IMG/VR virus record: IMGVR_UViG_3300047170_000110
Length of the DNA: 45,963 bases
DNA from: an uncultured virus (IMG/VR IMGVR_UViG_3300047170_000110)
Lineage: Duplodnaviria; Heunggongvirae; Uroviricota; Caudoviricetes
Strand: one strand, 5' to 3'
Of this stretch, positions 12,704 to 45,963 are shown in pieces (within the stretch, counting starts at the first letter, position 1; each line of letters opens with the position of its first letter). A program made the translations under genes and the position numbers. The notes beneath the pieces were generated by a model that was not told the origin of the DNA, searched no databases, and saw only the letters and a program-made list of their open reading frames with translations.

Positions 12704-13036
12704 ATGAAGCCTAAACGCCGCGAGGAATTGATTAAACAGTACGACCGTATCTTGGAAGAGCGGAAACTGGCACCCTCTACTAGCCGTACCTACAGTTGGC
12801 AAGTAGGGACATTTATTGACTTTTGTAATAAAGACCCGGAGCACATCCCGGCGACGAAAATCGAGGACTATCTCCGGGGGCTCCTCAAGCGCCGGGTCTC
12901 CCGACCCTTCTTCCTTCAGGCCTGCGCGGCCATCGATTTGCTGTACCGCCAGCTGTATAACAGCAACAAGGTGAGAAATATTCTTCCGACCGTTCAGGAG
13001 AAAACACGAACAGATTCAAGAGCCCCGTCGAAGTAG
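12704..13036 (+). CDS. stand-alone tyrosine-recombinase N-terminal (SAM-like) domain protein
   Basis: 'LAPSTSRTYSWQV..F..F....P......IEDYL..L.....VS.....QACAAIDLLY' resembles IntI/Xer core-binding domain; no catalytic domain follows. Confidence 0.7.
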   Translation: MKPKRREELIKQYDRILEERKLAPSTSRTYSWQVGTFIDFCNKDPEHIPATKIEDYLRGLLKRRVSRPFFLQACAAIDLLYRQLYNSNKVRNILPTVQEKTRTDSRAPSK

Positions 13037-15758: not shown

Positions 15759-17876
15759 ATGAACATGAACAAGAAGTTCCAAACCCTGAGTCTCCTGGCC
15801 TTCACCGCAGCCCTTTCCGCTTGCCAAGGCGCCGTGGACGTGGCGGTCAGCACGACCGGCACCGCGACGACGACCCCTTCCGGTAGCGGCACCGGCAACA
15901 CGGGCGGCACGATCTCGTTGGTTCTCTCGGGAGTCAGCCCTTCGAGCGGCCCCCTCACGGGCGGCACGACCCTGACCCTGACGGGCACGGGCCTGGCTTC
16001 GGGCCTGACCGTTCAGATCGCGGGCTCGACCTGCTTAAATCTGACCATCCTTTCTTCGACCCGGGCGACCTGCCAAGTTCCCGCCGGATCCACCGCTGGC
16101 GCGCAAGCCGTGCAGGCGGCGCTCAGCGGCCAGACCGCGCAGCTCTCTTCCGCTTACACTTACGTGGCGGCTCCGACCGTCACTTCGGTCACCCCTAACC
16201 AGGGAGTCCTTGCTGGAGGTACGGCGATCCAGATCTTCGGAACGGGCTTCAAGTCCGGCGCGACGGTCCTGGTCGGCGCCTCGGCCTGCACCTCGGTGAA
16301 CTTCGTGAGCGCGACGGAGATCGATTGCACGACTCCTTCCGGCACAGGCGCGCAGGCGATCCAGGTGACGAACCCGGACAGCCAGCTCGGTTCCTTGGCT
16401 TCCGCCTTCACCTTCCAGTCCTCCGTGTTCATCAGCAGCATCAGCCCGACTTCGGGTGCTCCAGCTGGCGGCACGACCCTGACCCTCCATGGGGGCGGTT
16501 TCGTTGCGGGCGCGCTCATCAAGGTCAACGGCGCTTCCTGCACGACGACTCTCGACTCGGGGATCCAGGCCCATTGCACGACTCCGGCCGCTTCCGCCGG
16601 ATCTTATAACGTGACGATCACGACGGCGGGCCAGACGGTAACCGCTTCGCAGAACTTCCATTACGCATTGGCGACGGCGATCGTTGCGGACGCGGATAAC
16701 GGAGCACGGGCTTGCGCGATCCTTTCGGATACGAGCGTGAACTGCTGGGGCATCGGGCCGTCCGAAATTCTCCCGAACACGGGCAATCAGTCCGCCAGCA
16801 CGGGCAACACTCCCATCGCGATTCCAGGCATTTCGGGCACGGGCCTGCTGACTGGTGTATCCAAACTCTCGGTCAGCTCCGAAGTAGCTTGCGCCGTCCT
16901 GACGAGCGGTCAAGCAGTTTGCTGGGGTGACAACACCTACGGACAGCTCGGGACCGGCGATGCCAATCCTCATGCCTACCCGGTAACGGTCATGAATGGC
17001 GGTTCCCCGATGACGGGCGTGACCAAGATCGTGACGAATGGCGCGGCGACTTGCGCGTTGCTCTCGAACCAGCAAGCTTACTGTTGGGGCCAGTATGAAA
17101 ACGCGATGGGCGTAGGCTCGATGGGAGGCATGACCCTGGGGACCGTGATCCTGACCCCCCAAGTGGTTTTGAATTCCATTCAATCCGCTGCGCTCACCTC
17201 CATCACGGATTTGGCGATGGGAGGCAACACCGGTTGCTACGTGGTCTCTTCCTCGACGGTTTACTGCGCGGGCTACGCGAATGGCGGAGCTTCCCCGACC
17301 AGTTACGTCCGGACAATCTCCAATACCGGCAACGTGACCTCGATCTCCGTTTCCCTGACTTCCGGTTGCATCACGACCGCGACGAACTCGAACGTGATGT
17401 GCTGGTCCCCGATGTCCTCGAACAACTACGCCACCTATCCGAATGGCTTGCCGACCGGCCAGGTGTTTAACTTCGGAGCCATCGGCCTCTCGGTTTCGGC
17501 CGCGACCAGCACGAGCTACAACACGATCACGTACGGCAGCAACCCTGCGGCGACCCAGATCTCCAACACGACCGATTCCGCCTGCGCGGTGTTCAGTGAC
17601 GGATCCGCCCGCTGCATCGGTGTTTCGGGCTACGGCGAGTTCGGAAACAACGTGACTCCGAACTACTCCTCCGTATCCAGCACCTTCACGAACGTGCTGA
17701 ATCCTGCCGGTAGCGCCAACATGACGAACGTCTCGGCCGTAGCCGGTCATTGCGCTCTGAACAGCAGCGGCGCGGTGTACTGCTGGGGCGTGGACGTTCA
17801 GTCGGGTACCATCAATGGCGCAGGAAATGGCGTGGCGGGAACCCTTCTCCTTCCCCAGCAGATCTCCTGGCAGTAA
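15759..17876 (+). CDS. surface lipoprotein with three IPT/TIG domains and RCC1/BLIP-II-like repeats
   Basis: Lipobox LSAC; three 'SP.SG...GGT.L.L.G.G' repeats; repeated 'CA(I/V)L.....CWG.N.YGQLG'. Confidence 0.85.
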   Translation: MNMNKKFQTLSLLAFTAALSACQGAVDVAVSTTGTATTTPSGSGTGNTGGTISLVLSGVSPSSGPLTGGTTLTLTGTGLASGLTVQIAGSTCLNLTILSSTRATCQVPAGSTAGAQAVQAALSGQTAQLSSAYTYVAAPTVTSVTPNQGVLAGGTAIQIFGTGFKSGATVLVGASACTSVNFVSATEIDCTTPSGTGAQAIQVTNPDSQLGSLASAFTFQSSVFISSISPTSGAPAGGTTLTLHGGGFVAGALIKVNGASCTTTLDSGIQAHCTTPAASAGSYNVTITTAGQTVTASQNFHYALATAIVADADNGARACAILSDTSVNCWGIGPSEILPNTGNQSASTGNTPIAIPGISGTGLLTGVSKLSVSSEVACAVLTSGQAVCWGDNTYGQLGTGDANPHAYPVTVMNGGSPMTGVTKIVTNGAATCALLSNQQAYCWGQYENAMGVGSMGGMTLGTVILTPQVVLNSIQSAALTSITDLAMGGNTGCYVVSSSTVYCAGYANGGASPTSYVRTISNTGNVTSISVSLTSGCITTATNSNVMCWSPMSSNNYATYPNGLPTGQVFNFGAIGLSVSAATSTSYNTITYGSNPAATQISNTTDSACAVFSDGSARCIGVSGYGEFGNNVTPNYSSVSSTFTNVLNPAGSANMTNVSAVAGHCALNSSGAVYCWGVDVQSGTINGAGNGVAGTLLLPQQISWQ

Positions 17877-22205: not shown

Positions 22206-22634
22206 ATGGTTAGCTCAAAAACAACGACCCTCTTGCAAACCGCGCTTCAAAGTGACGAGGCGGCTGCGGAGCTGCTCGGCGCGATCGAAAGCGTCGATGG
22301 ACCTACGGGCGCCGCTGGCGCAACGGGAGCGGCCGGATCTACCGGAGCAGCCGGTGCAACCGGTTCGACCGGCGCTTCTGGAGCCACGGGAGCTGCGGGC
22401 GCAACGGGGGCTTCCGGAGCGACCGGAGCTTCTGGGCCTACCGGAGCGGCTGGCGCAACGGGCGCTTCCGGAGCGACGGGGGCATCGGGAGCCACCGGCG
22501 CGGCCGGGAACGCTTCCGCCGAAGTCTATACGGCCGGGACGCCCGGGAACTGGACCGCTCCTTCTCCAACCACGACTGCCGCCGCGCTGGATCGCCTCGC
22601 CGCTGCCGTCAAGCTCGCAGGCCAAACGCCTTAA
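22206..22634 (+). CDS. collagen-like (G-X-Y) virion protein
   Basis: More than 20 GAT/GAA/GAS triplets; late motif at 22162-22168. Confidence 0.85.
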
Positions 22635-25111: not shown

Positions 25112-25477
25112 ATGCGTGAGGACCCCATGAAGTCAAACTCCACCCCTAAAAGCCACCGGCTGCTTCAGATCGCCCGCGCGACGCTTGATCGGGGCGGGGC
25201 GGAGAACGAAGTCGTGGCTCGCGAGATGGCCGTACTGGCCCTCAGATCGGAAGACGCCATGGATGCCCTGGACAAGCTCCTACCCAAAGTCCCCGAGCCT
25301 GAGATGCGGGAAGAGGACTTCGAAGAAAACCTCGAAGAAACCCAGGTCGCCCAGATCCGCGCGATGGCCAATGAGCTGGTCGCACGGAAGAAGGATTGGA
25401 TCGCCAAATCCATTCTCGCCCGCTTGGACCAAATCGACGAGGCGAAGAAGCGCCGCCGGGCCAAGACCCAGAAGTAA
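25112..25477 (+). CDS. hypothetical late protein (start may be ATG 25127)
   Basis: Helical, charged; CTTATTTTT motif at about 25095. Confidence 0.6.
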   Translation: MREDPMKSNSTPKSHRLLQIARATLDRGGAENEVVAREMAVLALRSEDAMDALDKLLPKVPEPEMREEDFEENLEETQVAQIRAMANELVARKKDWIAKSILARLDQIDEAKKRRRAKTQK

Positions 25478-25538
25478 GTTCGGCATCATCGCCCTGGATG
25501 TCCGGAAAGATGTGCTGGAATCCAGGTTATTTTCAGGT

Positions 25539-25766
25539 ATGGATCTGAAGACCAAGTATCCAGCGCTCGCAGCCGTCGTACCGAAAGGTGCGGGCCCTTG
25601 CTGCATGTGTCATCAGCGTATGTCCGATCAGGACGGCTTTCAGCTGTGTCCGGACTGCCAGGAGAGCATCAACAACTCTACCGGCCTGGGGCTTGACTAC
25701 GCGTCGGTCGCGAGTGTAATCGAAGATTCGAAGTACCCCACCGTGGCCGAAATCTCCGGCCACTAG
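25539..25766 (+). CDS. small Zn-finger late protein (MDLKTKYPAL...)
   Basis: CCMC..CPDC; GGTTATTTT motif 12 nt before ATG. Confidence 0.6.
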   Translation: MDLKTKYPALAAVVPKGAGPCCMCHQRMSDQDGFQLCPDCQESINNSTGLGLDYASVASVIEDSKYPTVAEISGH

Positions 25767-25767
25767 G

Positions 25768-25795
25768 TTGACCTCCTCCCAACCCTCCACATAAT
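25768..25795 (+). promoter_or_regulatory. sigma70-like promoter of the amber operon
   Basis: TTGACC-N16-CATAAT. Confidence 0.6.
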
Positions 25796-25856
25796 AGTTT
25801 CAAGCAAGCCTGCCTCGCGGGCTCGCCGCGTTTCACCCTCATTCCAGGAGGCTCCC

Positions 25857-25886
25857 GTGTTCTACTAGGTGCTGCACCCTCCCTAA
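25857..25886 (+). CDS. leader peptide with internal amber codon (M-F-Y-TAG-V-L-H-P-P-TAA)
   Basis: AGGAGG at 25846-25851, 5-nt spacer, GTG TTC TAC TAG GTG CTG CAC CCT CCC TAA. Confidence 0.65.
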
Positions 25887-25945
25887 AGCTCTCCAAGATC
25901 CAGCGTTCGCCCGTTTAACCCGAACCCTAATTTTTGGAGACTTTA
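25884..25945 (+). promoter_or_regulatory. RBS-sequestering helix (putative translational attenuator)
   Basis: TAAAG-c-TCTCCAAGA (25884-25898) pairs with TTTTGGAGACTTTA (25932-25945), covering GGAG and the A of ATG; inner GTTCG/CGAAC hairpin. Confidence 0.65.
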
Positions 25946-26301
25946 TGAAATCCGTCGTCCTTTCTGAAATGAAGACCGAACTGAAATCCATGGCCGCGCA
26001 GATCCGGACCAACCGGCCGCTCGCGCGGGCCGCCGAATCCAACCAAGCCCGCAACCTCCCCTTCGAATACCCCACCCCCAATCCGTACGCTTTGTCCGAG
26101 CAATTCCGTTTCCTTCACATCGTCTACTGCCTGATGCGTGGGAGGACGATGGAGCAGATCGAACAGAAGCGCCGGTACACGCCCTACGCATTCCAGGCGC
26201 GCATCGATCGCCTTCGGGGGATCTACCAGCCCCGTCTGGATGCCGAACGCGCTCAGGCTGCCCAGGAAGCCGCTCCGGAGGCCGTGCATGACGTAGGGTG
26301 A
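25945..26301 (+). CDS. small helical phage protein (gene A of amber operon)
   Basis: 118 aa; FRFLHIVYCLMRGRTMEQIE motif; GGAG RBS. Confidence 0.8.
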   Translation: MKSVVLSEMKTELKSMAAQIRTNRPLARAAESNQARNLPFEYPTPNPYALSEQFRFLHIVYCLMRGRTMEQIEQKRRYTPYAFQARIDRLRGIYQPRLDAERAQAAQEAAPEAVHDVG

Positions 26302-26575
26302 GAAGCTCTACGTCTTGGTAGAAGCGAGCCTCTCGTCTTCCCAGCGAGCCGTGCAGGCCGCGCATGGGGTTGCCCAGTATTGCCTGGACCACCCCGATAC
26401 GCCCTGGCGGAACGGAACGATCGTCCTGCTGGTGGTCGAAGGGCTCGAAGCCTACATCCAAGGGCACGACCTAGGGCGTCATTCGGTGTTCCGAGAACCG
26501 GACGCTGGGGATCTGCTGACGGCCGTAGTGGGCTTGGATTTTAAAAGAATTACGAAGAGGTTGCCTATGTTGTAA
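26288..26575 (+). CDS. Pth2-like peptidyl-tRNA hydrolase with in-frame TAG at codon 3
   Basis: GGAGG-6nt-ATG ACG TAG GGT GAG AAG CTC TAC GTC TTG; KLYVLV...L..SQ.AVQAAH, W.NGTIVLL and FREPD....LTAV resemble the Pth2 fold. Confidence 0.75.
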
Positions 26576-26654
26576 ACCGGCAAAAGATCGGCCCTCTCCA
26601 GTAGGTTAGAACCTAGCTTACTTATTGGAGAGGATCGGTAAAAGCACATCAAAT

Positions 26655-26731
26655 GGACCCGTAGCTCAGTTGGGTAGAGCGGCCGATTCTAAATCGGCAG
26701 GTCGTGGGTTCGAACCCCACCGGGTCCTCCA
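26655..26731 (+). tRNA. amber suppressor tRNA, anticodon CUA
   Basis: Cloverleaf: GGACCCG/CGGGTCC-T-CCA; D stem GCTC/GAGC; GCCGA-TT[CTA]AA-TCGGC (anticodon 26689-26691); GTGGG-TTCGAAC-CCCAC. Confidence 0.95.
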
Positions 26732-26843
26732 AAATAAGCGCCACATGCTCGCCAAGGGGAGGGAACGCCCTGAGGCTGGACGACGATTGCACGGGAGCGT
26801 CGAAGTTGTGGGACACCGGATCCAGGGGCGCTAACCCTTGGGG

Positions 26844-27689
26844 CTAGGGGGAGAGAGCGCCCTCATTTTTTTCTGTAGGACCAGGAAGTAGTTTTGTTCC
26901 CGACTTGATCGCCAGCAACACGCGCTCTTTGTCTTTAAAGAAAGAATCGATCCGATCCGCGAGCGCGCAGATCCCGATCATCACCTCGTAAAAGAATTTC
27001 GCCGCCTCTTCGGTGTAGGGCATCTCTTTGAGTCCCTCGGGCAACTCGTAGCCGTCCTCCCGGGACCCTTCGTCAAAGAACCAAATGCCGGTAAAGCCAT
27101 TCAGCTTGGCTCTCCAGGAAACATCCGATCCGTGATGGTTCTCCAGGCCGTCTTCCGGGGTGTACCGGATCTTGGTGCCGGAAGATCGGGTGAAGGTTTG
27201 CTTGGTAATGACTCGGGCCATGAAGCCGACCTGAAAGAAGTCGGACTGCTTCATGTGTCCGTCCAGGTTTCCGAACCAATCCCCCTGGCCTTTACCATAC
27301 ACGGGTGCGTATCCCCCGTTGGGGTAAATCGTGCCGTCCTTCCCCTTGTAGAACGAGACTCGGTTGTCCGTGCCGTATACGAGGATCAGCTCTTCCGTAA
27401 CCGTGCAGGCAACGTGATCTTCGGCTGCCTTCTGGCTAAAGTCCTCCAGAAGCCGGAGTGTCTTGGCCGCGAGACGGGTCTTCCCCCGGTGGTAGTCGAT
27501 CCCTACGTCTTCCCACTCAGGTTTGGCGGAGTTCCGATCCACTCGTTTGAGTCGCTCCGCCGATTCCAGAAGTTCCTCGGGCACGGTTGTCCGGAAAATT
27601 CCGGTCGAATCCACCGTCACGTCCAGGTCCTTAGAGAACTTTTGGACAGGGGATTTGGCGATCACTCGGATCGTGCTAATTTTAGCCAT
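26844..27689 (-). CDS. hypothetical protein (MAKISTIRV...), paralog of 28499-29134
   Basis: GAAGGA RBS before ATG 27689; C-terminal EMPYTEEAAKFF motif. Confidence 0.7.
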   Translation of the reverse strand: MAKISTIRVIAKSPVQKFSKDLDVTVDSTGIFRTTVPEELLESAERLKRVDRNSAKPEWEDVGIDYHRGKTRLAAKTLRLLEDFSQKAAEDHVACTVTEELILVYGTDNRVSFYKGKDGTIYPNGGYAPVYGKGQGDWFGNLDGHMKQSDFFQVGFMARVITKQTFTRSSGTKIRYTPEDGLENHHGSDVSWRAKLNGFTGIWFFDEGSREDGYELPEGLKEMPYTEEAAKFFYEVMIGICALADRIDSFFKDKERVLLAIKSGTKLLPGPTEKNEGALSP

Positions 27690-31135: not shown

Positions 31136-32080
31136 TTAAACGAGGTGTTGTTTCAGGAGCGCGGAAAGGGAGGACAATTCCGTCTTCAGGCTGCTGGCCG
31201 TACCGGTCAGGAGGGTCTCGTACATTTCGACCTTGCTCTGAAGGGACTTGAAAACCTTCAGGCGAGCTTCGATACCGCGATCGGTGGTAGGGGGATTCGT
31301 CTGGAGCTTTTCCTTCTCGCTTGCGAGCTGCGCTTCGATTTCACCCACGAGGGACTTCCACATGCTCTTCTTAGCTTGGGCGGTATCGATCACGGGGATG
31401 ATTCCGAGCGAGCACTGGGGGAAGAAGGCGAAAAACTTCTGGAGCTTCTGGAATTCGGCACTATAGGTCGAAGGGACGAAGTACACGCCGCCGTTGTCGC
31501 GAACGGAGATCGCCATGCACTCCTGCCGGAGGTACCGAAGGATCGCTTCGCGGGCGTTGTCCACGTTGTAGAAGCCCTGCTCGGCTTTGTAGCCGTCATG
31601 GACGGCCTGAGCGTTGTGACCATCGACCTTGATCTGCGAAGTCTTCTTGTCGAAGATGATCTGCGTGTCGGTCTGGAAATCGACCTTGTTGGCCGTGCTG
31701 GCATCGAGCCGCTGAGCGACGATCACAAACAGCGTGTGGGCCGGGGATTCGATCGTGCGGTAGAATGAATTCTTACGGGTCGCGGTTTCCTTCTGAATCG
31801 CGCGGACCAGGGCGGATTTGCTGCGCACTTCGCCCGCGATCTCCGGAGAGATGCCCGCTTCCTGGAGCTTTGCCACGAATTCGGAGAACACCATATTGAT
31901 GTTCGTCAGGGACCAGTAGGCGCACTCGCCCAGGAGCGGGTAACCTTCAGCGGAGCTTGCAATCAGACTCCGGGTGACCTGCTTGACGGGCTTCGGAGCG
32001 GCGGCAGCGGCCGGAGCGACGGTCTTCATGGGCGGGAGCTTCTTGGACTTTTTGGCGGAGGGGGTAGTTTGGGTTTTCAT
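31136..32080 (-). CDS. MoxR-associated conserved protein (DUF6744-like)
   Basis: 'LLG...YWSL', 'AISVRDNGGVYFVP', C-terminal coiled coil; lies between MoxR and VWA genes. Confidence 0.65.
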   Translation of the reverse strand: MKTQTTPSAKKSKKLPPMKTVAPAAAAAPKPVKQVTRSLIASSAEGYPLLGECAYWSLTNINMVFSEFVAKLQEAGISPEIAGEVRSKSALVRAIQKETATRKNSFYRTIESPAHTLFVIVAQRLDASTANKVDFQTDTQIIFDKKTSQIKVDGHNAQAVHDGYKAEQGFYNVDNAREAILRYLRQECMAISVRDNGGVYFVPSTYSAEFQKLQKFFAFFPQCSLGIIPVIDTAQAKKSMWKSLVGEIEAQLASEKEKLQTNPPTTDRGIEARLKVFKSLQSKVEMYETLLTGTASSLKTELSSLSALLKQHLV

Positions 32081-32109
32081 ATCGGTTCCTTTCGTTTGAG
32101 GGTTTGGGA

Positions 32110-33249
32110 TTATTCGACGCCGAGTTCGTCTCGGACGAATTTCTGATTGGTCGCATCGACCTGGGCGATGGCCTTATCGAGCTTCGTGTTGTTCATGCCG
32201 GGCTTGCGGAGGTTCTTGAGGGTATCGAGGGACTTCTTGAGCTTCTTCTGGACTTCGAAGGCTTCCAGGCCTTGCTCCCGCTTCCGCCAGCGACCGAGGA
32301 CATCCTGGACCGCATCGGTCTGCGCGGTGATCGCTTCTCCGAGCGGGTTGGAGACTTTCGCGACCATCTGGCGGACCTTCTTGATTTCTTCGGGCGAGGA
32401 CCAGAGCATCGCTTCCAGGATTTCGAGATCGTCCGCTTCCACTTCCGAGTGGCCGTTCAAGTAGGCCTGGGCCTTGATGATGTTGAGGGTCTGGGTCCAG
32501 CGACGGTCGGAGATCTCCATGCCCGAATTTTTCACTTCGGTGCGGAGTTCGAGGATCAGGTCCAGGATCTTTTCCGAGACCGGGAGGGCCATCGCGGCGG
32601 CTTGCTCTTGCTTGATCTTTTCCAGCGGGACGTGCGGGAGTTCCGGACCCTTGCCGGACTGGAGATCAAGCTTGAGCTTCAGGAGAGATTTCATGTTCGC
32701 GTCGTCCTGGATCGCCGCGACCTCAAACCGAACCACCATGCGGTCCCAGAAAGCTTCCAGACCTTCCGCGTCGGGGATGGAATTGGCGGCCGAGTAGAAG
32801 GCTTCGAGAGGGCATTGCACGACCGTGTCGCCGCCGTTTTGGTAGATGCGCTCGTTGATGACCGGCAAGAAGGTGTCGAGGATCGAGGGGCTTCCGCGAG
32901 GGGCTTCGTCGATAAAGGCGATATGGCAGTCGGGGAGCTTGCCACGGATGACGCGCTCGTGAACGTCGTTCTCCATGGACTTGAAGCTCACAGGTCCAAA
33001 GAGTTCTTCGGGGGTGGTGAACTTGTTCATGGTTTTTTCGAAGTACCGGCCGCCGAGCATGCGGGTCAGCACGCGGTAGAGTTCGGACTTGCCCGTGCCC
33101 GGAGGCCCGAGAAGAAACATCGCCTGGCGAGCTAGGAGCGTGACGATCGTTCCGTCGATCACGCTGTCACGTTCTTTGAAAAGTTCTTTCAGGGTGGTCC
33201 GAAGGGTCTGGACCGAAGCTTCAGCGGGGGCTTTCTTATTAGTAGACAT
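32110..33249 (-). CDS. MoxR/RavA-like AAA+ ATPase
   Basis: Walker A GPPGTGKS, TTPEELFGP, Walker B AFIDE, AFWDR, ISDRRW. Confidence 0.92.
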   Translation of the reverse strand: MSTNKKAPAEASVQTLRTTLKELFKERDSVIDGTIVTLLARQAMFLLGPPGTGKSELYRVLTRMLGGRYFEKTMNKFTTPEELFGPVSFKSMENDVHERVIRGKLPDCHIAFIDEAPRGSPSILDTFLPVINERIYQNGGDTVVQCPLEAFYSAANSIPDAEGLEAFWDRMVVRFEVAAIQDDANMKSLLKLKLDLQSGKGPELPHVPLEKIKQEQAAAMALPVSEKILDLILELRTEVKNSGMEISDRRWTQTLNIIKAQAYLNGHSEVEADDLEILEAMLWSSPEEIKKVRQMVAKVSNPLGEAITAQTDAVQDVLGRWRKREQGLEAFEVQKKLKKSLDTLKNLRKPGMNNTKLDKAIAQVDATNQKFVRDELGVE

Positions 33250-33490
33250 AAACACTCAACCTCTCTTCTTCTCTCAATTTACTTTATGCGGGCCGTCATG
33301 TCTACAATTATGTCTAGCGTATCCCCGATTTAGCTAGTACCTTAATAATATTAAGTATTTAGTTATTCAGGGGAGGCTGGATAGACCTCCGACAGGTGCT
33401 TGATCCGAGAGGTAGGGCATGAGATTGCGGGCGTGCGGACGCCCGGCGCGAGATCGCGCGAACGCGGGGGAGGGGGATGGAGGGGTGGGG

Positions 33491-44877: not shown

Positions 44878-45247
44878 AACGCATGACCATTTTCGAGTGA
44901 TAGAAAAGCGAATCAATGAGGTCATGTCCACGCGGGCTGAGCATGTTGAAAAGTTTTGCGCGGCATTTTTCAAGCAGGTTGGAAGCCATGAAGCGAGCCA
45001 GTATGCCCTAGTTGAGCGGCACGAAAAGACATTCGACGGGTTCAAATTCACATGGACATTCGAGAAGCGCACTCCTGAAGAGACTGCGCCATTAAAACGC
45101 CCCAGCGGATGCTCTTGCGCGAAATGCGGCGCTTACATCCCAGACGGCTCCACGTTTTCAAAAGATGAGTTCGGAAGCCCGGTCCATACCGGGTGCAGGC
45201 CCGTAAAGTATGAGCGCGAAAAGGGCGTTGATGACCCACGCAAATAG
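44867..45247 (+). CDS. Zn-finger hypothetical protein
   Basis: GGGGAG RBS; CAKC..HTGC. Confidence 0.55.
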   Translation: MSIETHDHFRVIEKRINEVMSTRAEHVEKFCAAFFKQVGSHEASQYALVERHEKTFDGFKFTWTFEKRTPEETAPLKRPSGCSCAKCGAYIPDGSTFSKDEFGSPVHTGCRPVKYEREKGVDDPRK

Positions 45248-45264
45248 ACCATAAGGACGAAACT

Positions 45265-45510
45265 ATGATCGTTGTAAAAGGTCCGAAATCCACGGCGACG
45301 CAATCGAAGCATAAGCCGTCACGGCCACAATTGCGGGCATGTCCATTTTGCGGAAAGACTCCAAAATGGGTAAGTCACTTCGAGTCTAGTTTTTGGGTGG
45401 AGTGCCAGACTTTTGAATGTTGGATTGTCGGCCCACACGCGCCCGATAGCAACGGAGCAATCCAACGATGGAACCGGCGACCGATTGAAAAATCGCCAGC
45501 CTATGGGTAG
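45265..45510 (+). CDS. Lar-like restriction-alleviation family protein
   Basis: LRACPFCG..VECQTFEC...GP....AIQRWNRR signature. Confidence 0.8.
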   Translation: MIVVKGPKSTATQSKHKPSRPQLRACPFCGKTPKWVSHFESSFWVECQTFECWIVGPHAPDSNGAIQRWNRRPIEKSPAYG

Positions 45511-45524
45511 GAGGGAGTGCAAAG

Positions 45525-45713
45525 ATGGATAGCCCACCAATCAATAGCTACCCGGATGAGGTCACACGCAAGTGGAAAGAGGAACGCGACCGATATAAGG
45601 CGGCGCTGGAAAATATCATTCGTCGCGACGGAGATTTTCCCTACGCAAGAGATGTGAAACAGTTGGCACGCGAAGCGTTGCGATCAGGAGAGGCACACGC
45701 CAAACAAAGATGA
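45525..45713 (+). CDS. small hypothetical protein
   Basis: GGAGGGAG RBS; 'ERDRYKAALENI..AREAL'. Confidence 0.55.
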   Translation: MDSPPINSYPDEVTRKWKEERDRYKAALENIIRRDGDFPYARDVKQLAREALRSGEAHAKQR

Positions 45714-45719
45714 TGCGAA

Positions 45720-45947
45720 ATGACTAAACTAGAGATTGCCATCGAGGCTTTGCGATTTTTGCGCGACGACTACCCGTCCAGTACGCATGTGTGGCAAATT
45801 TGCAACGATGCCTTGGCTAAGATGGAGAAGATGCCCGACGACATTGCGATGGACCCGTTTGAGCGGGATGAACTATCGATTCGCTTATGCCCGCATGGTA
45901 AGGGTGGCGGATTGAACTGCGCAGAATGCAAACCCCAAGGAAAGTAA
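45720..45947 (+). CDS. small hypothetical protein
   Basis: 75 aa; CPHG..CAEC. Confidence 0.55.
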   Translation: MTKLEIAIEALRFLRDDYPSSTHVWQICNDALAKMEKMPDDIAMDPFERDELSIRLCPHGKGGGLNCAECKPQGK

Positions 45948-45963
45948 ACAGTCATGGTTAACA

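Follow-up and report, generated by a model that had tools for sequence, protein, structure and literature searches.

A phage transcription unit joining a CUA suppressor tRNA, a UAG-gated leader and a Pth2-like gene: a putative translational switch responsive to amber suppression

Why should a phage whose structural genes follow the standard genetic code carry a tRNA with the anticodon of a stop codon, and why should that tRNA lie beside two frames that are broken by this very stop? The question is raised by a 45,963-nucleotide (nt) stretch of DNA from an uncultured virus of the Caudoviricetes (IMG/VR record IMGVR_UViG_3300047170_000110), here called the window. In it, a tRNA with anticodon CUA and two frames preceded by strong ribosome-binding sites, each interrupted by an early TAG (25866 and 26294), share a single unit. 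A sequence-only reading of the window had proposed that this unit is an operon gated by amber readthrough, sensing the balance between the suppressor tRNA and release factor 1 (RF1), the factor by which UAG is read. Its coordinates were right, the terminal stops of the unit (TAA, TGA and TAA) are indeed all non-amber, and its core idea is supported by about 150 related loci. We propose, from sequence comparison and with a probability of roughly 0.7, that the unit is a translational switch measuring UAG suppression. The new point of the module, in our reading, would be its leader, which we take as the regulatory mini-ORF (open reading frame) of a putative translational attenuator.

The unit extends from a promoter-like site to a terminator-like hairpin over positions 25768-26875 of the plus strand and contains the leader, a gene here called gene A, a Pth2-like gene and the tRNA-CUA. 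Its features are the following:

25768-25795, plus strand: promoter-like site, TTGACC-16 nt-CATAAT, 10 of 12 consensus positions (consensus match only)
25846-25851, plus strand: Shine-Dalgarno (SD) sequence of the leader, AGGAGG, 5 nt before the GTG at 25857
25857-25886, plus strand: leader of nine codons, M-F-Y-[UAG 25866-25868]-V-L-H-P-P-stop, with GTG start and TAA stop (25884-25886)
25890-25896, plus strand: anti-SD UCUCCAA, 3 nt after the leader stop, pairing with 25934-25940
25934-25940, plus strand: ribosome-binding site of gene A, UUGGAGA, sequestered in a predicted hairpin
25945-26301, plus strand: gene A, 118 amino acids, helical, with ATG start and TGA stop (26299-26301)
26277-26281, plus strand: SD of the Pth2-like gene, GGAGG, 6 nt before the ATG at 26288
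26288-26578, plus strand: Pth2-like gene of 95 codons, M-T-[UAG 26294-26296]-G-E-K-L-Y-V..., with TAA stop (26576-26578)
26587-26639, plus strand: very stable hairpin separating the tRNA from the Pth2-like stop, -29.1 kcal/mol, z -5.45
26655-26731, plus strand: tRNA with anticodon CUA and encoded CCA (ARAGORN; Rfam tRNA, 71.6 bits)
26847-26875, plus strand: terminator-like hairpin with a T-run (consensus match only)

The two TAG codons are not the slip of one assembly, since both recur unchanged in contigs of other studies: positions 25750-25871, which include the leader TAG, show 0 differences from a contig of run X3, and positions 26227-26450, which include the TAG of the Pth2-like gene, show 0 differences from a contig of runs X4/X5. 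Nor are they signs of a generally altered code, as the sequence-only reading had also held. Over the 46 kb of the window, the long ORFs and the head, tail and lysis genes are whole under code 11, no in-frame TAG was found in any other supported gene, and TAG is the terminal stop of 15 out of 62 greedily called ORFs. The many genes with in-frame TAG that mark a recoded phage are thus absent from these 46 kb. A scan of the window found no second convincing frame with a start and an early stop, and no window protein matched a tRNA synthetase or a release factor. The only long extra frame that appears when TAG is read as Gln (45158-45961, minus strand, with five TAGs) was rejected as a gene, its translation being low-complexity junk.

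Related loci were gathered from viral contigs, metagenome contigs served as a replication set, and tRNAs were called with ARAGORN. In the 220 nt inspected upstream of gene A, a leader mini-ORF is apparent in nearly all loci, and these leaders share a pattern: an SD, a start, one to seven codons, UAG, two to eight codons ending in Pro-Pro, and a stop. In the window the codons are GTG TTC TAC TAG GTG CTG CAC CCT CCC TAA, with UAG as codon 4. With TAG as the gate, the strict pattern is matched by 40 of 79 upstream regions from viral contigs and by 20 of 58 from metagenome contigs, compared with 3/79 and 3/58 for a TAA gate and 2/79 and 0/58 for a TGA gate; on the reverse strand the TAG-gated form is found in none of the 79 viral and none of the 58 metagenome regions. 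Looser versions add seven viral loci. The density of the pattern is 0.63 per kb in the upstream regions and 0.059 per kb elsewhere in the same loci, a difference of about 11-fold.

Among 57 distinct leaders, 50 end in Pro-Pro and 19 different codon pairs are used for it, which points to selection on the peptide rather than on the RNA. The residue preceding Pro-Pro is Lys in 23 leaders and Arg in 12 (35 together), and Gly in 3; the base following TAG is a purine in 54. The spacing is also regular, the gate being the third codon in 25 of 42 leaders and five codons following the gate in 25 of 42. The sequence-only reading had described two reading frames interrupted by TAG. An interrupted protein gene is an apt description of the Pth2-like gene but not of the leader, which in our reading is a regulatory mini-ORF ending in Pro-Pro-stop.

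The gate codon follows the anticodon of the neighbouring tRNA. The suppressor tRNA nearest to the module has anticodon CUA in 66 viral loci, UUA in 2 and UCA in 1, and a tRNA of matching anticodon stands beside two of the five viral gates that are not TAG, one TGA and one TAA. The former locus (L078) has a tRNA-UCA, a leader-like ORF gated by TGA and a Pth2-like gene that also begins with a TGA-interrupted stretch; the latter (Lak-B4, L089) has a tRNA-UUA and a TAA-gated leader. A fusion of gene A to the Pth2-like gene through TAA was considered for Lak-B4 and rejected, the Pth2-like gene having its own ATG there.

The bases that follow the leader stop are complementary to the ribosome-binding site of gene A. 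In the window, the duplex of anti-SD and SD has a predicted energy of -11.5 kcal/mol, compared with -6.1 for shuffled sequences, and the minimum free energy (MFE) fold of 25830-25960 (-30.2 kcal/mol, z -2.4) includes this helix; in the MFE fold the SD of the leader itself, AGGAGG, is paired to the CCUCC in the two proline codons. In 25 of 40 loci, the first 24 nt past the leader stop bind the gene A SD better than shuffled sequences do (mean z -2.09). The mean energy is -9.90 kcal/mol for cognate pairs and -6.16 for non-cognate ones, and 0 of 5000 permutations reach the cognate mean. The pairing energy decays as the segment tested is moved away from the leader stop, and MFE folds computed locus by locus show, in 32 of 41, the core of the SD paired within the 24 nt that follow this stop. 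The unit presents two of the elements by which a translational attenuator is recognised: ahead of the regulated gene, a short leader ORF that has a ribosome-binding site of its own, and a hairpin hiding the SD of that gene, one strand of which lies under the predicted footprint of a stalled ribosome.

The Pth2-like gene is gated in its own frame, which overlaps the end of gene A and reads ATG ACG TAG followed by 92 open codons. The only canonical in-frame start after the TAG is a TTG at 26315, which falls inside the first beta-strand of the structural model (residues 3-9). This strand, K-L-Y-V-L-V-E, has K3, L4 and Y5 invariant or nearly so, and a start at 26315 would remove most of it, so the protein probably needs the ATG at 26288 and readthrough of the UAG. 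The same arrangement, with no start between the stop and the first strand, is found in 16 of 144 evaluable loci with TAG, in 1 with TAA and in 0 with TGA. In six of the 16 TAG-gated loci, the gene was scored as continuing a long upstream ORF by readthrough; the window is one of them, and there the long upstream frame is an artefact of the overlap with gene A. In loci such as L121, L130 and L146 the frames of gene A and of the Pth2-like gene are joined through an in-frame TAG.

That the gene is Pth2-like, as previously suggested, holds by fold and by family profile. The AlphaFold model has a pLDDT (predicted local distance difference test) of 97.3, and its 12 best Foldseek matches are all members of the Pth2 family (3erj, 2zv3, 1q7s, 1wn2, 1xty and 1rlk among them), with probability 1.00 and template modelling (TM) scores by query of 0.59-0.75. 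The window protein alone has no Pfam or PHROG match even at E 10 and lies below the Pfam gathering score; a profile of 84 family members matches the archaeal Pth2 chain 2zv3 (E 2.6e-5), and 54 of the 84 relatives match PF01981 at E<=1, the best at 6.8e-8. The family counts at least 339 clusters at E<=0.001, mostly of 90-105 residues and starting with M-x-K-L-Y. Q20 and H23 are invariant and E67, P68 and T75 nearly so, and the Glu of the family's F-x-E-P-D stretch aligns with the Asp of the Pth2 D-A-G stretch, which we take to be catalytic. Two single-protein scans, which reach close relatives only, found no relatives in bacterial or archaeal genomes, and a metagenome scan with the window protein gave no match. 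Lak megaphages carry the family as well. So do two cultured Stenotrophomonas jumbo phages, where the Pth2-like domain forms the C-terminal half of a 262-residue protein (in RAS14, WAX21615.1, encoded at 2521-3306 of L088), the N-terminal half of which looks like an HD domain by its motifs; in these phages no tRNA lies within 3 kb, and an annotated valyl-tRNA synthetase gene lies about 1 kb downstream.

Gene A is modelled as a helical protein (pLDDT 89.8) and carries the motif FRxxH-[IV]-x-Y-C-L-x-R-G-R. No Pfam family, no Protein Data Bank (PDB) sequence match and no Foldseek match at E<=0.001 was obtained for it, and a wide structure search (VIA) returned only generic helical matches (Z<=6.0). 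Feature matches to helix-turn-helix and sigma-70 region 4 proteins scored 0.81-0.84, below the bar of 0.9, and are a lead only. By tblastn, homologs of gene A lie directly upstream of the Pth2-like gene in 39 of 87 other loci, the two form one ORF of about 185-190 residues in 16 loci, and a frame test scores them as fused in 36 of 144. A prediction of the complex of the two window proteins scored 0.28, under the 0.32 mark.

The tRNA itself has a canonical cloverleaf and a 7-nt anticodon loop, UUCUAAA, with U33 and a purine at 37; with its cloverleaf, loop and anticodon it is predicted to be a functional suppressor. Compared with 291 tRNAs of related loci, it comes closest to other CUA tRNAs linked to the module, at 81-84% identity. 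The sequence-only reading had proposed to look in homologs for an adjacent CUA tRNA and a conserved early TAG. The linkage was borne out. Of 77 distinct viral loci, 69 have a suppressor tRNA, which in 67 is on the same strand; of 71 distinct metagenome loci, 51 have one, in every case CUA and on the same strand. The early TAG in the Pth2-like gene is confined to the 16 of 144 loci mentioned above. Of the metagenome loci with at least 900 nt of sequence downstream, 40 out of 45 have the tRNA. In the viral loci, 48 suppressor tRNAs lie 200-1000 nt downstream of the AVQ motif, and the viral set contains 75 distinct suppressor tRNA sequences. A control set built on the HNH gene, meant to give a tRNA baseline, held only four loci, which is too few.

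Look-alike tRNAs are found in contigs of runs X1, X3, X4 and X5 from the same moss metagenomes. The anticodon of the window tRNA occupies 26689-26691 and its discriminator base is U; in many look-alikes, T at 26691 gives the anticodon CTT (Lys), and the suppressor tRNA may have descended from a Lys tRNA. In one lineage (L018, L024, L026, L028, L042, L047, L053-L056 and L068), an extra tRNA-like element of 80-96 nt precedes the leader by about 80-200 nt and follows a TGTGGTATAAT-type promoter. Where ARAGORN calls a tRNA in this element, the anticodons are odd (taaa, aaa, gga, tga), and in L053 the predicted anticodon of the downstream tRNA has four bases, ctaa.

How these parts could work together can be laid out as a sequence of conditional steps. 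All four parts, from the leader to the tRNA-CUA, would be transcribed together from one promoter, and the tRNA would be cut from the transcript and charged by a host enzyme. When RF1 wins at the leader UAG, the ribosome would leave after three residues, the hairpin would stay closed and gene A would be off. When the suppressor tRNA wins, the ribosome would run five codons on and pause at Pro-Pro-stop; its footprint would then cover the anti-SD strand, so that the ribosome-binding site of gene A would be freed and gene A translated. The Pth2-like gene would need a second readthrough, at its own codon 3, and its output should therefore rise more steeply with suppression than that of gene A.

The geometry of the leader is consistent with these steps. 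Past the codon in its P site, a ribosome shields roughly 12-15 nt of mRNA. With a ribosome of this size, the footprint ends near 25878 when UAG is in the A site, short of the anti-SD, and extends to about 25893-25896, over the anti-SD, when CCC is in the P site and TAA in the A site, so that only a ribosome that has passed the UAG and lingers at Pro-Pro-stop would open the hairpin. A pause at this point would agree with the slowing of termination by a C-terminal proline (Hayes, Bose and Sauer 2002, as cited in PMC12856214) and with the Pro-Pro arrest peptides of the RAPP type described in parts of PMC10951233 and PMC12992588. The window carries both devices, the leader gate and the direct UAG gate, and the two would have the same sign, which suggests that production of the proteins is reserved for times of working suppression. 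It had been claimed that both proteins are made only upon readthrough: for the Pth2-like protein this applies directly, while gene A has no TAG of its own and would be gated indirectly, through the pairing of its ribosome-binding site with the stretch that follows the leader stop. A readthrough switch, one of the hypotheses offered with the original claim, fits this design. Another, that the tRNA and the hydrolase form a substitute route of UAG termination, does not, because the design needs UAG to be read as sense for the genes to be turned on. None of the observations speaks to the remaining hypothesis, a sensor of host attack on RF1.

What the two proteins do is a more tentative matter. Our best guess is that gene A and the Pth2-like protein work as a unit on the suppressor tRNA in its ester-linked form, aminoacyl or peptidyl. 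The fold, the conserved polar pocket, the fusion to gene A and the fixed place beside the tRNA suggest that the Pth2-like protein is an enzyme acting on, or a binder of, the acylated 3' end of that tRNA. The proteins could be a brake or an editor of suppression, an option that we hold as possible rather than probable; by analogy with the tna operon and prfB, it would close a feedback loop. Only slightly less likely is that they clear peptidyl-tRNA produced by suppression or by the arrested leader, a task that fits the canonical function of Pth2. The Pth2-like protein might also release the arrested leader, in a manner comparable to that of monitoring substrates. A fuller proposal, and a speculative one, is that the operon is a self-contained governor of suppression on the model of the monitoring substrates, in which the leader would be the gauge, arresting at Pro-Pro-stop, a tRNA-specific ester hydrolase the effector, and feedback would hold the level of readthrough; gene A would be the tRNA-recognition arm and the Pth2 fold the catalytic head, and the hydrolase would strip the suppressor tRNA or the peptidyl-tRNA of the arrested leader.

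Several points weigh against the switch as proposed. The anatomy of the unit, its conservation, the match of gate and anticodon and the pairing are observations; the stalling, the readthrough and the sign of the switch are what we infer from them. A loose regular expression for the leader does not exceed chance in the window (4 gate sites and 5 start variants, both strands), so that the weight of the leader comes from its conservation at the homologous place and not from the pattern alone. The strict leader is missing from 39 of 79 viral and 38 of 58 metagenome regions, the suppressor tRNA from 8 of 77 viral loci, and significant anti-SD pairing from 15 of 40 loci. RNAalifold, applied to a MAFFT alignment of 43 spacers, returned 0 pairs, which we think is due to a register that shifts in the alignment. 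The window leader ends in His-Pro-Pro and thus lacks the Arg-Ala/Gly-Pro-Pro motif of the RAPP and RGPP sequences shown to arrest. The start of the Pth2-like gene is ungated in 91 of 144 loci, and P0002, 83% identical to the window protein and available as a protein sequence only, is called with a plain Met start; the direct gate thus appears dispensable and labile. In the family profile alignment, the second Lys of the archaeal Pth2 GKGK stretch is replaced by Gln, and since that Lys is presumably catalytic, the Pth2-like protein may bind rather than hydrolyse. Finally, the presence of the family in Lak megaphages sits badly with a pure brake, because these phages read TAG as sense throughout.

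Could the observations be explained without a switch? One option is partial recoding, with TAG as an ordinary sense codon late in infection and the two TAGs sensing nothing. Suppressor tRNAs are a hallmark of recoded phages in the portion consulted of the preprint 10.1101/2021.08.26.457843, and the Lak megaphages, which share the Pth2-like family, would also speak for it. We consider it unlikely, given that no other supported gene of the window has an in-frame TAG and that TAG ends 15 of its 62 ORFs, that reading TAG as sense brings no clear gain in coding density, crudely measured, across ten 12-kb loci, and that the TAGs are stereotyped at codons 2-8 of a mini-ORF or of an N-terminal tail rather than scattered. 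The leader also has the shape of a minigene, with a strong SD, two to four codons and a stop beside a peptidyl-tRNA hydrolase fold, and the bar minigenes of phage lambda are linked to Pth; short ORFs of this kind would shed peptidyl-tRNAs that tie up host tRNA, and the Pth2-like enzyme would be the phage's remedy. This account is quite unlikely in our view, as it leaves unexplained why the stop is TAG in 40 of the 45 viral leaders fitting the pattern, why the gate codon follows the anticodon of the tRNA, why the frame past the stop is conserved down to Pro-Pro-stop, and why the bases after the leader pair with the next SD.

A simpler view takes both TAGs as plain stops: the leader would be a meaningless upstream ORF, and the Pth2-like gene would start at TTG 26315 or be decaying. 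The chance-level frequency of the leader pattern in the window and the ungated product called for the closest relative, P0002, agree with this view. It is made very improbable by the loss of most of strand 1, with its invariant or nearly invariant K3, L4 and Y5, that a start at 26315 would entail, by conservation in two independent collections, and by the 16 loci that have no possible start after the TAG. Hardly credible is a +1 shift at GGG-UGA (26296-26301), as in RF2, by which gene A would be fused to the Pth2-like domain and the TAG bypassed. Natural fusions of the two do exist, and a zero-frame stop with the Pth2-like frame at +1 is the layout that a shift requires; however, there is no SD-like stimulator at the RF2 spacing (the GGAGG lies 15 nt upstream), the re-pairing of the Gly tRNA from GGG to GGU would be imperfect, and in relatives such as L121, L130 and L146 it is an in-frame TAG that links the two frames.

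Coming back to the switch that measures UAG suppression, its mechanism would be a variant of translational attenuation by a leader peptide, with an ending of the arrest type. As in the ermC, cat and cmlA leaders, a short leader ORF has its own SD, and a held ribosome would melt a hairpin that hides the next ribosome-binding site; there the input is a drug, whereas here it would be a stop codon read as sense, and the ribosome would never reach the stall site without readthrough. The trpL, hisL and TnaC leaders similarly use the place of a ribosome on the leader to sense the supply of charged tRNA or a stall at Pro-stop, but they stall when charged tRNA is scarce, whereas the phage leader would proceed when the suppressor tRNA is present; moreover, the output of the phage unit is translational, as far as its anatomy shows. 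In prfB, the gene of RF2, an early in-frame stop likewise gauges how well that stop is read; the difference is that prfB uses a +1 frameshift and senses its own product, while the phage unit would use readthrough by a co-transcribed tRNA and control other proteins.

The basic residue followed by Pro-Pro recalls the arrest peptides ApdA, ApdP, SecM and MifM, as presented in parts of PMC10951233, PMC7897499 and PMC12992588. Unlike these, the phage leaders have about eight residues and a stop directly after Pro-Pro (His-Pro-Pro in the window), and the genes regulated are not those of protein-export machinery. The code change module described in 10.1101/2021.08.26.457843 also has a phage suppressor tRNA clustered with translation genes, and comes with the idea that expression is timed by readthrough; in the sections consulted, that module consists of suppressor tRNA, synthetase and release factor, and in the window the latter two were not found and the structural genes follow the standard code. 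The words 'hydrolase' and 'peptidyl' have 0 occurrences in that preprint. The archaeal and eukaryotic Pth2 proteins (PF01981; 3erj, 2zv3, 1q7s, 1xty) share with the phage protein the fold, the Q-x-x-H-A helix and an acidic residue in the D-A-G region. The phage protein differs from them in being shorter (about 92 residues), in falling below the Pfam threshold, in the Gln at the second Lys of GKGK, in its own family motifs W-x-N and F-x-E-P-D, and in its tie to a suppressor tRNA and to gene A. Papers on jumbo phages list Pth and suppressor tRNAs without linking them, and our searches of open-access PMC and bioRxiv turned up no publication in which suppressor tRNAs are connected with a Pth2-like gene or with a stop-gated leader. 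As far as we found, therefore, the input, stop-codon readthrough by a co-transcribed suppressor tRNA, is new.

Many phages of standard code carry suppressor tRNAs without known targets, and a design of this kind would give such a tRNA a conserved, built-in target and make stop-codon readthrough a natural regulatory signal. Two unstudied protein families, gene A and a branch of the Pth2 fold of at least 339 clusters, travel with the tRNA. The module may be a stepping stone between standard-code and recoded phages, and, being compact and natural, it could be built into synthetic circuits for reporting or controlling suppression. If the operon did turn out to be a governor of suppression, it would be the first natural readthrough sensor and would contain the first Pth2-type enzyme dedicated to one tRNA.

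Some features of the unit lie outside this argument. Promoter-like sites of the kind seen at 25768 number three in all between 25000 and 27200, against 0.7 expected from shuffled sequences. No shuffled sequence (0/200) folds as well as the hairpin at 26587-26639, which is followed by no T-run; it may mark a site of processing, or protect the mRNA end that remains once the tRNA has been excised. Past the tRNA, the trailer leading to the terminator folds into no unusual structure (z 0.32) and has no Rfam match. Just upstream of the unit, a zinc-ribbon-like gene (25539-25766) ends with a TAG in frame with the leader, and reading TAG as Gln opens a frame at 25185-25886; this frame is attributable to chance, because the stretch in between holds the promoter-like site and looks non-coding.

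In the group L024-L056 and in others, the module comes after a phage lysozyme gene (PF00959), located about 1 kb upstream in 24 loci; a helicase gene lies further upstream in 25 loci, and dUTPase and DNA methylase genes lie downstream in 23 each. This synteny belongs to one lineage and is not shared by the window.

The gene content of the window is phage-like, with a major head protein (phrog_2522, E 9e-55), a tape-measure-like protein, an HNH endonuclease, an endonuclease VII and an SLT lysozyme domain. A relative of the head protein, 88% identical in amino acids, is encoded on a viral contig of 223,260 bases (L090), so the phage of the window may be a jumbo phage; the locus on that contig has no tRNA, and its whole record gave no match to the Pth2-like profile. 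A 110-residue ORF at 12704-13036, ending in TAG, holds only an N-terminal SAM-like phage integrase domain (PF13495, E 4e-10) and, with no catalytic domain following, is probably an integrase remnant. The structural region also contains unusual cargo, namely a 705-residue protein with three TIG domains and RCC1 repeats (15759-17876), a frame of collagen repeats (22206-22634) and a MoxR-type AAA ATPase adjoining a DUF6744 protein (31136-33255).

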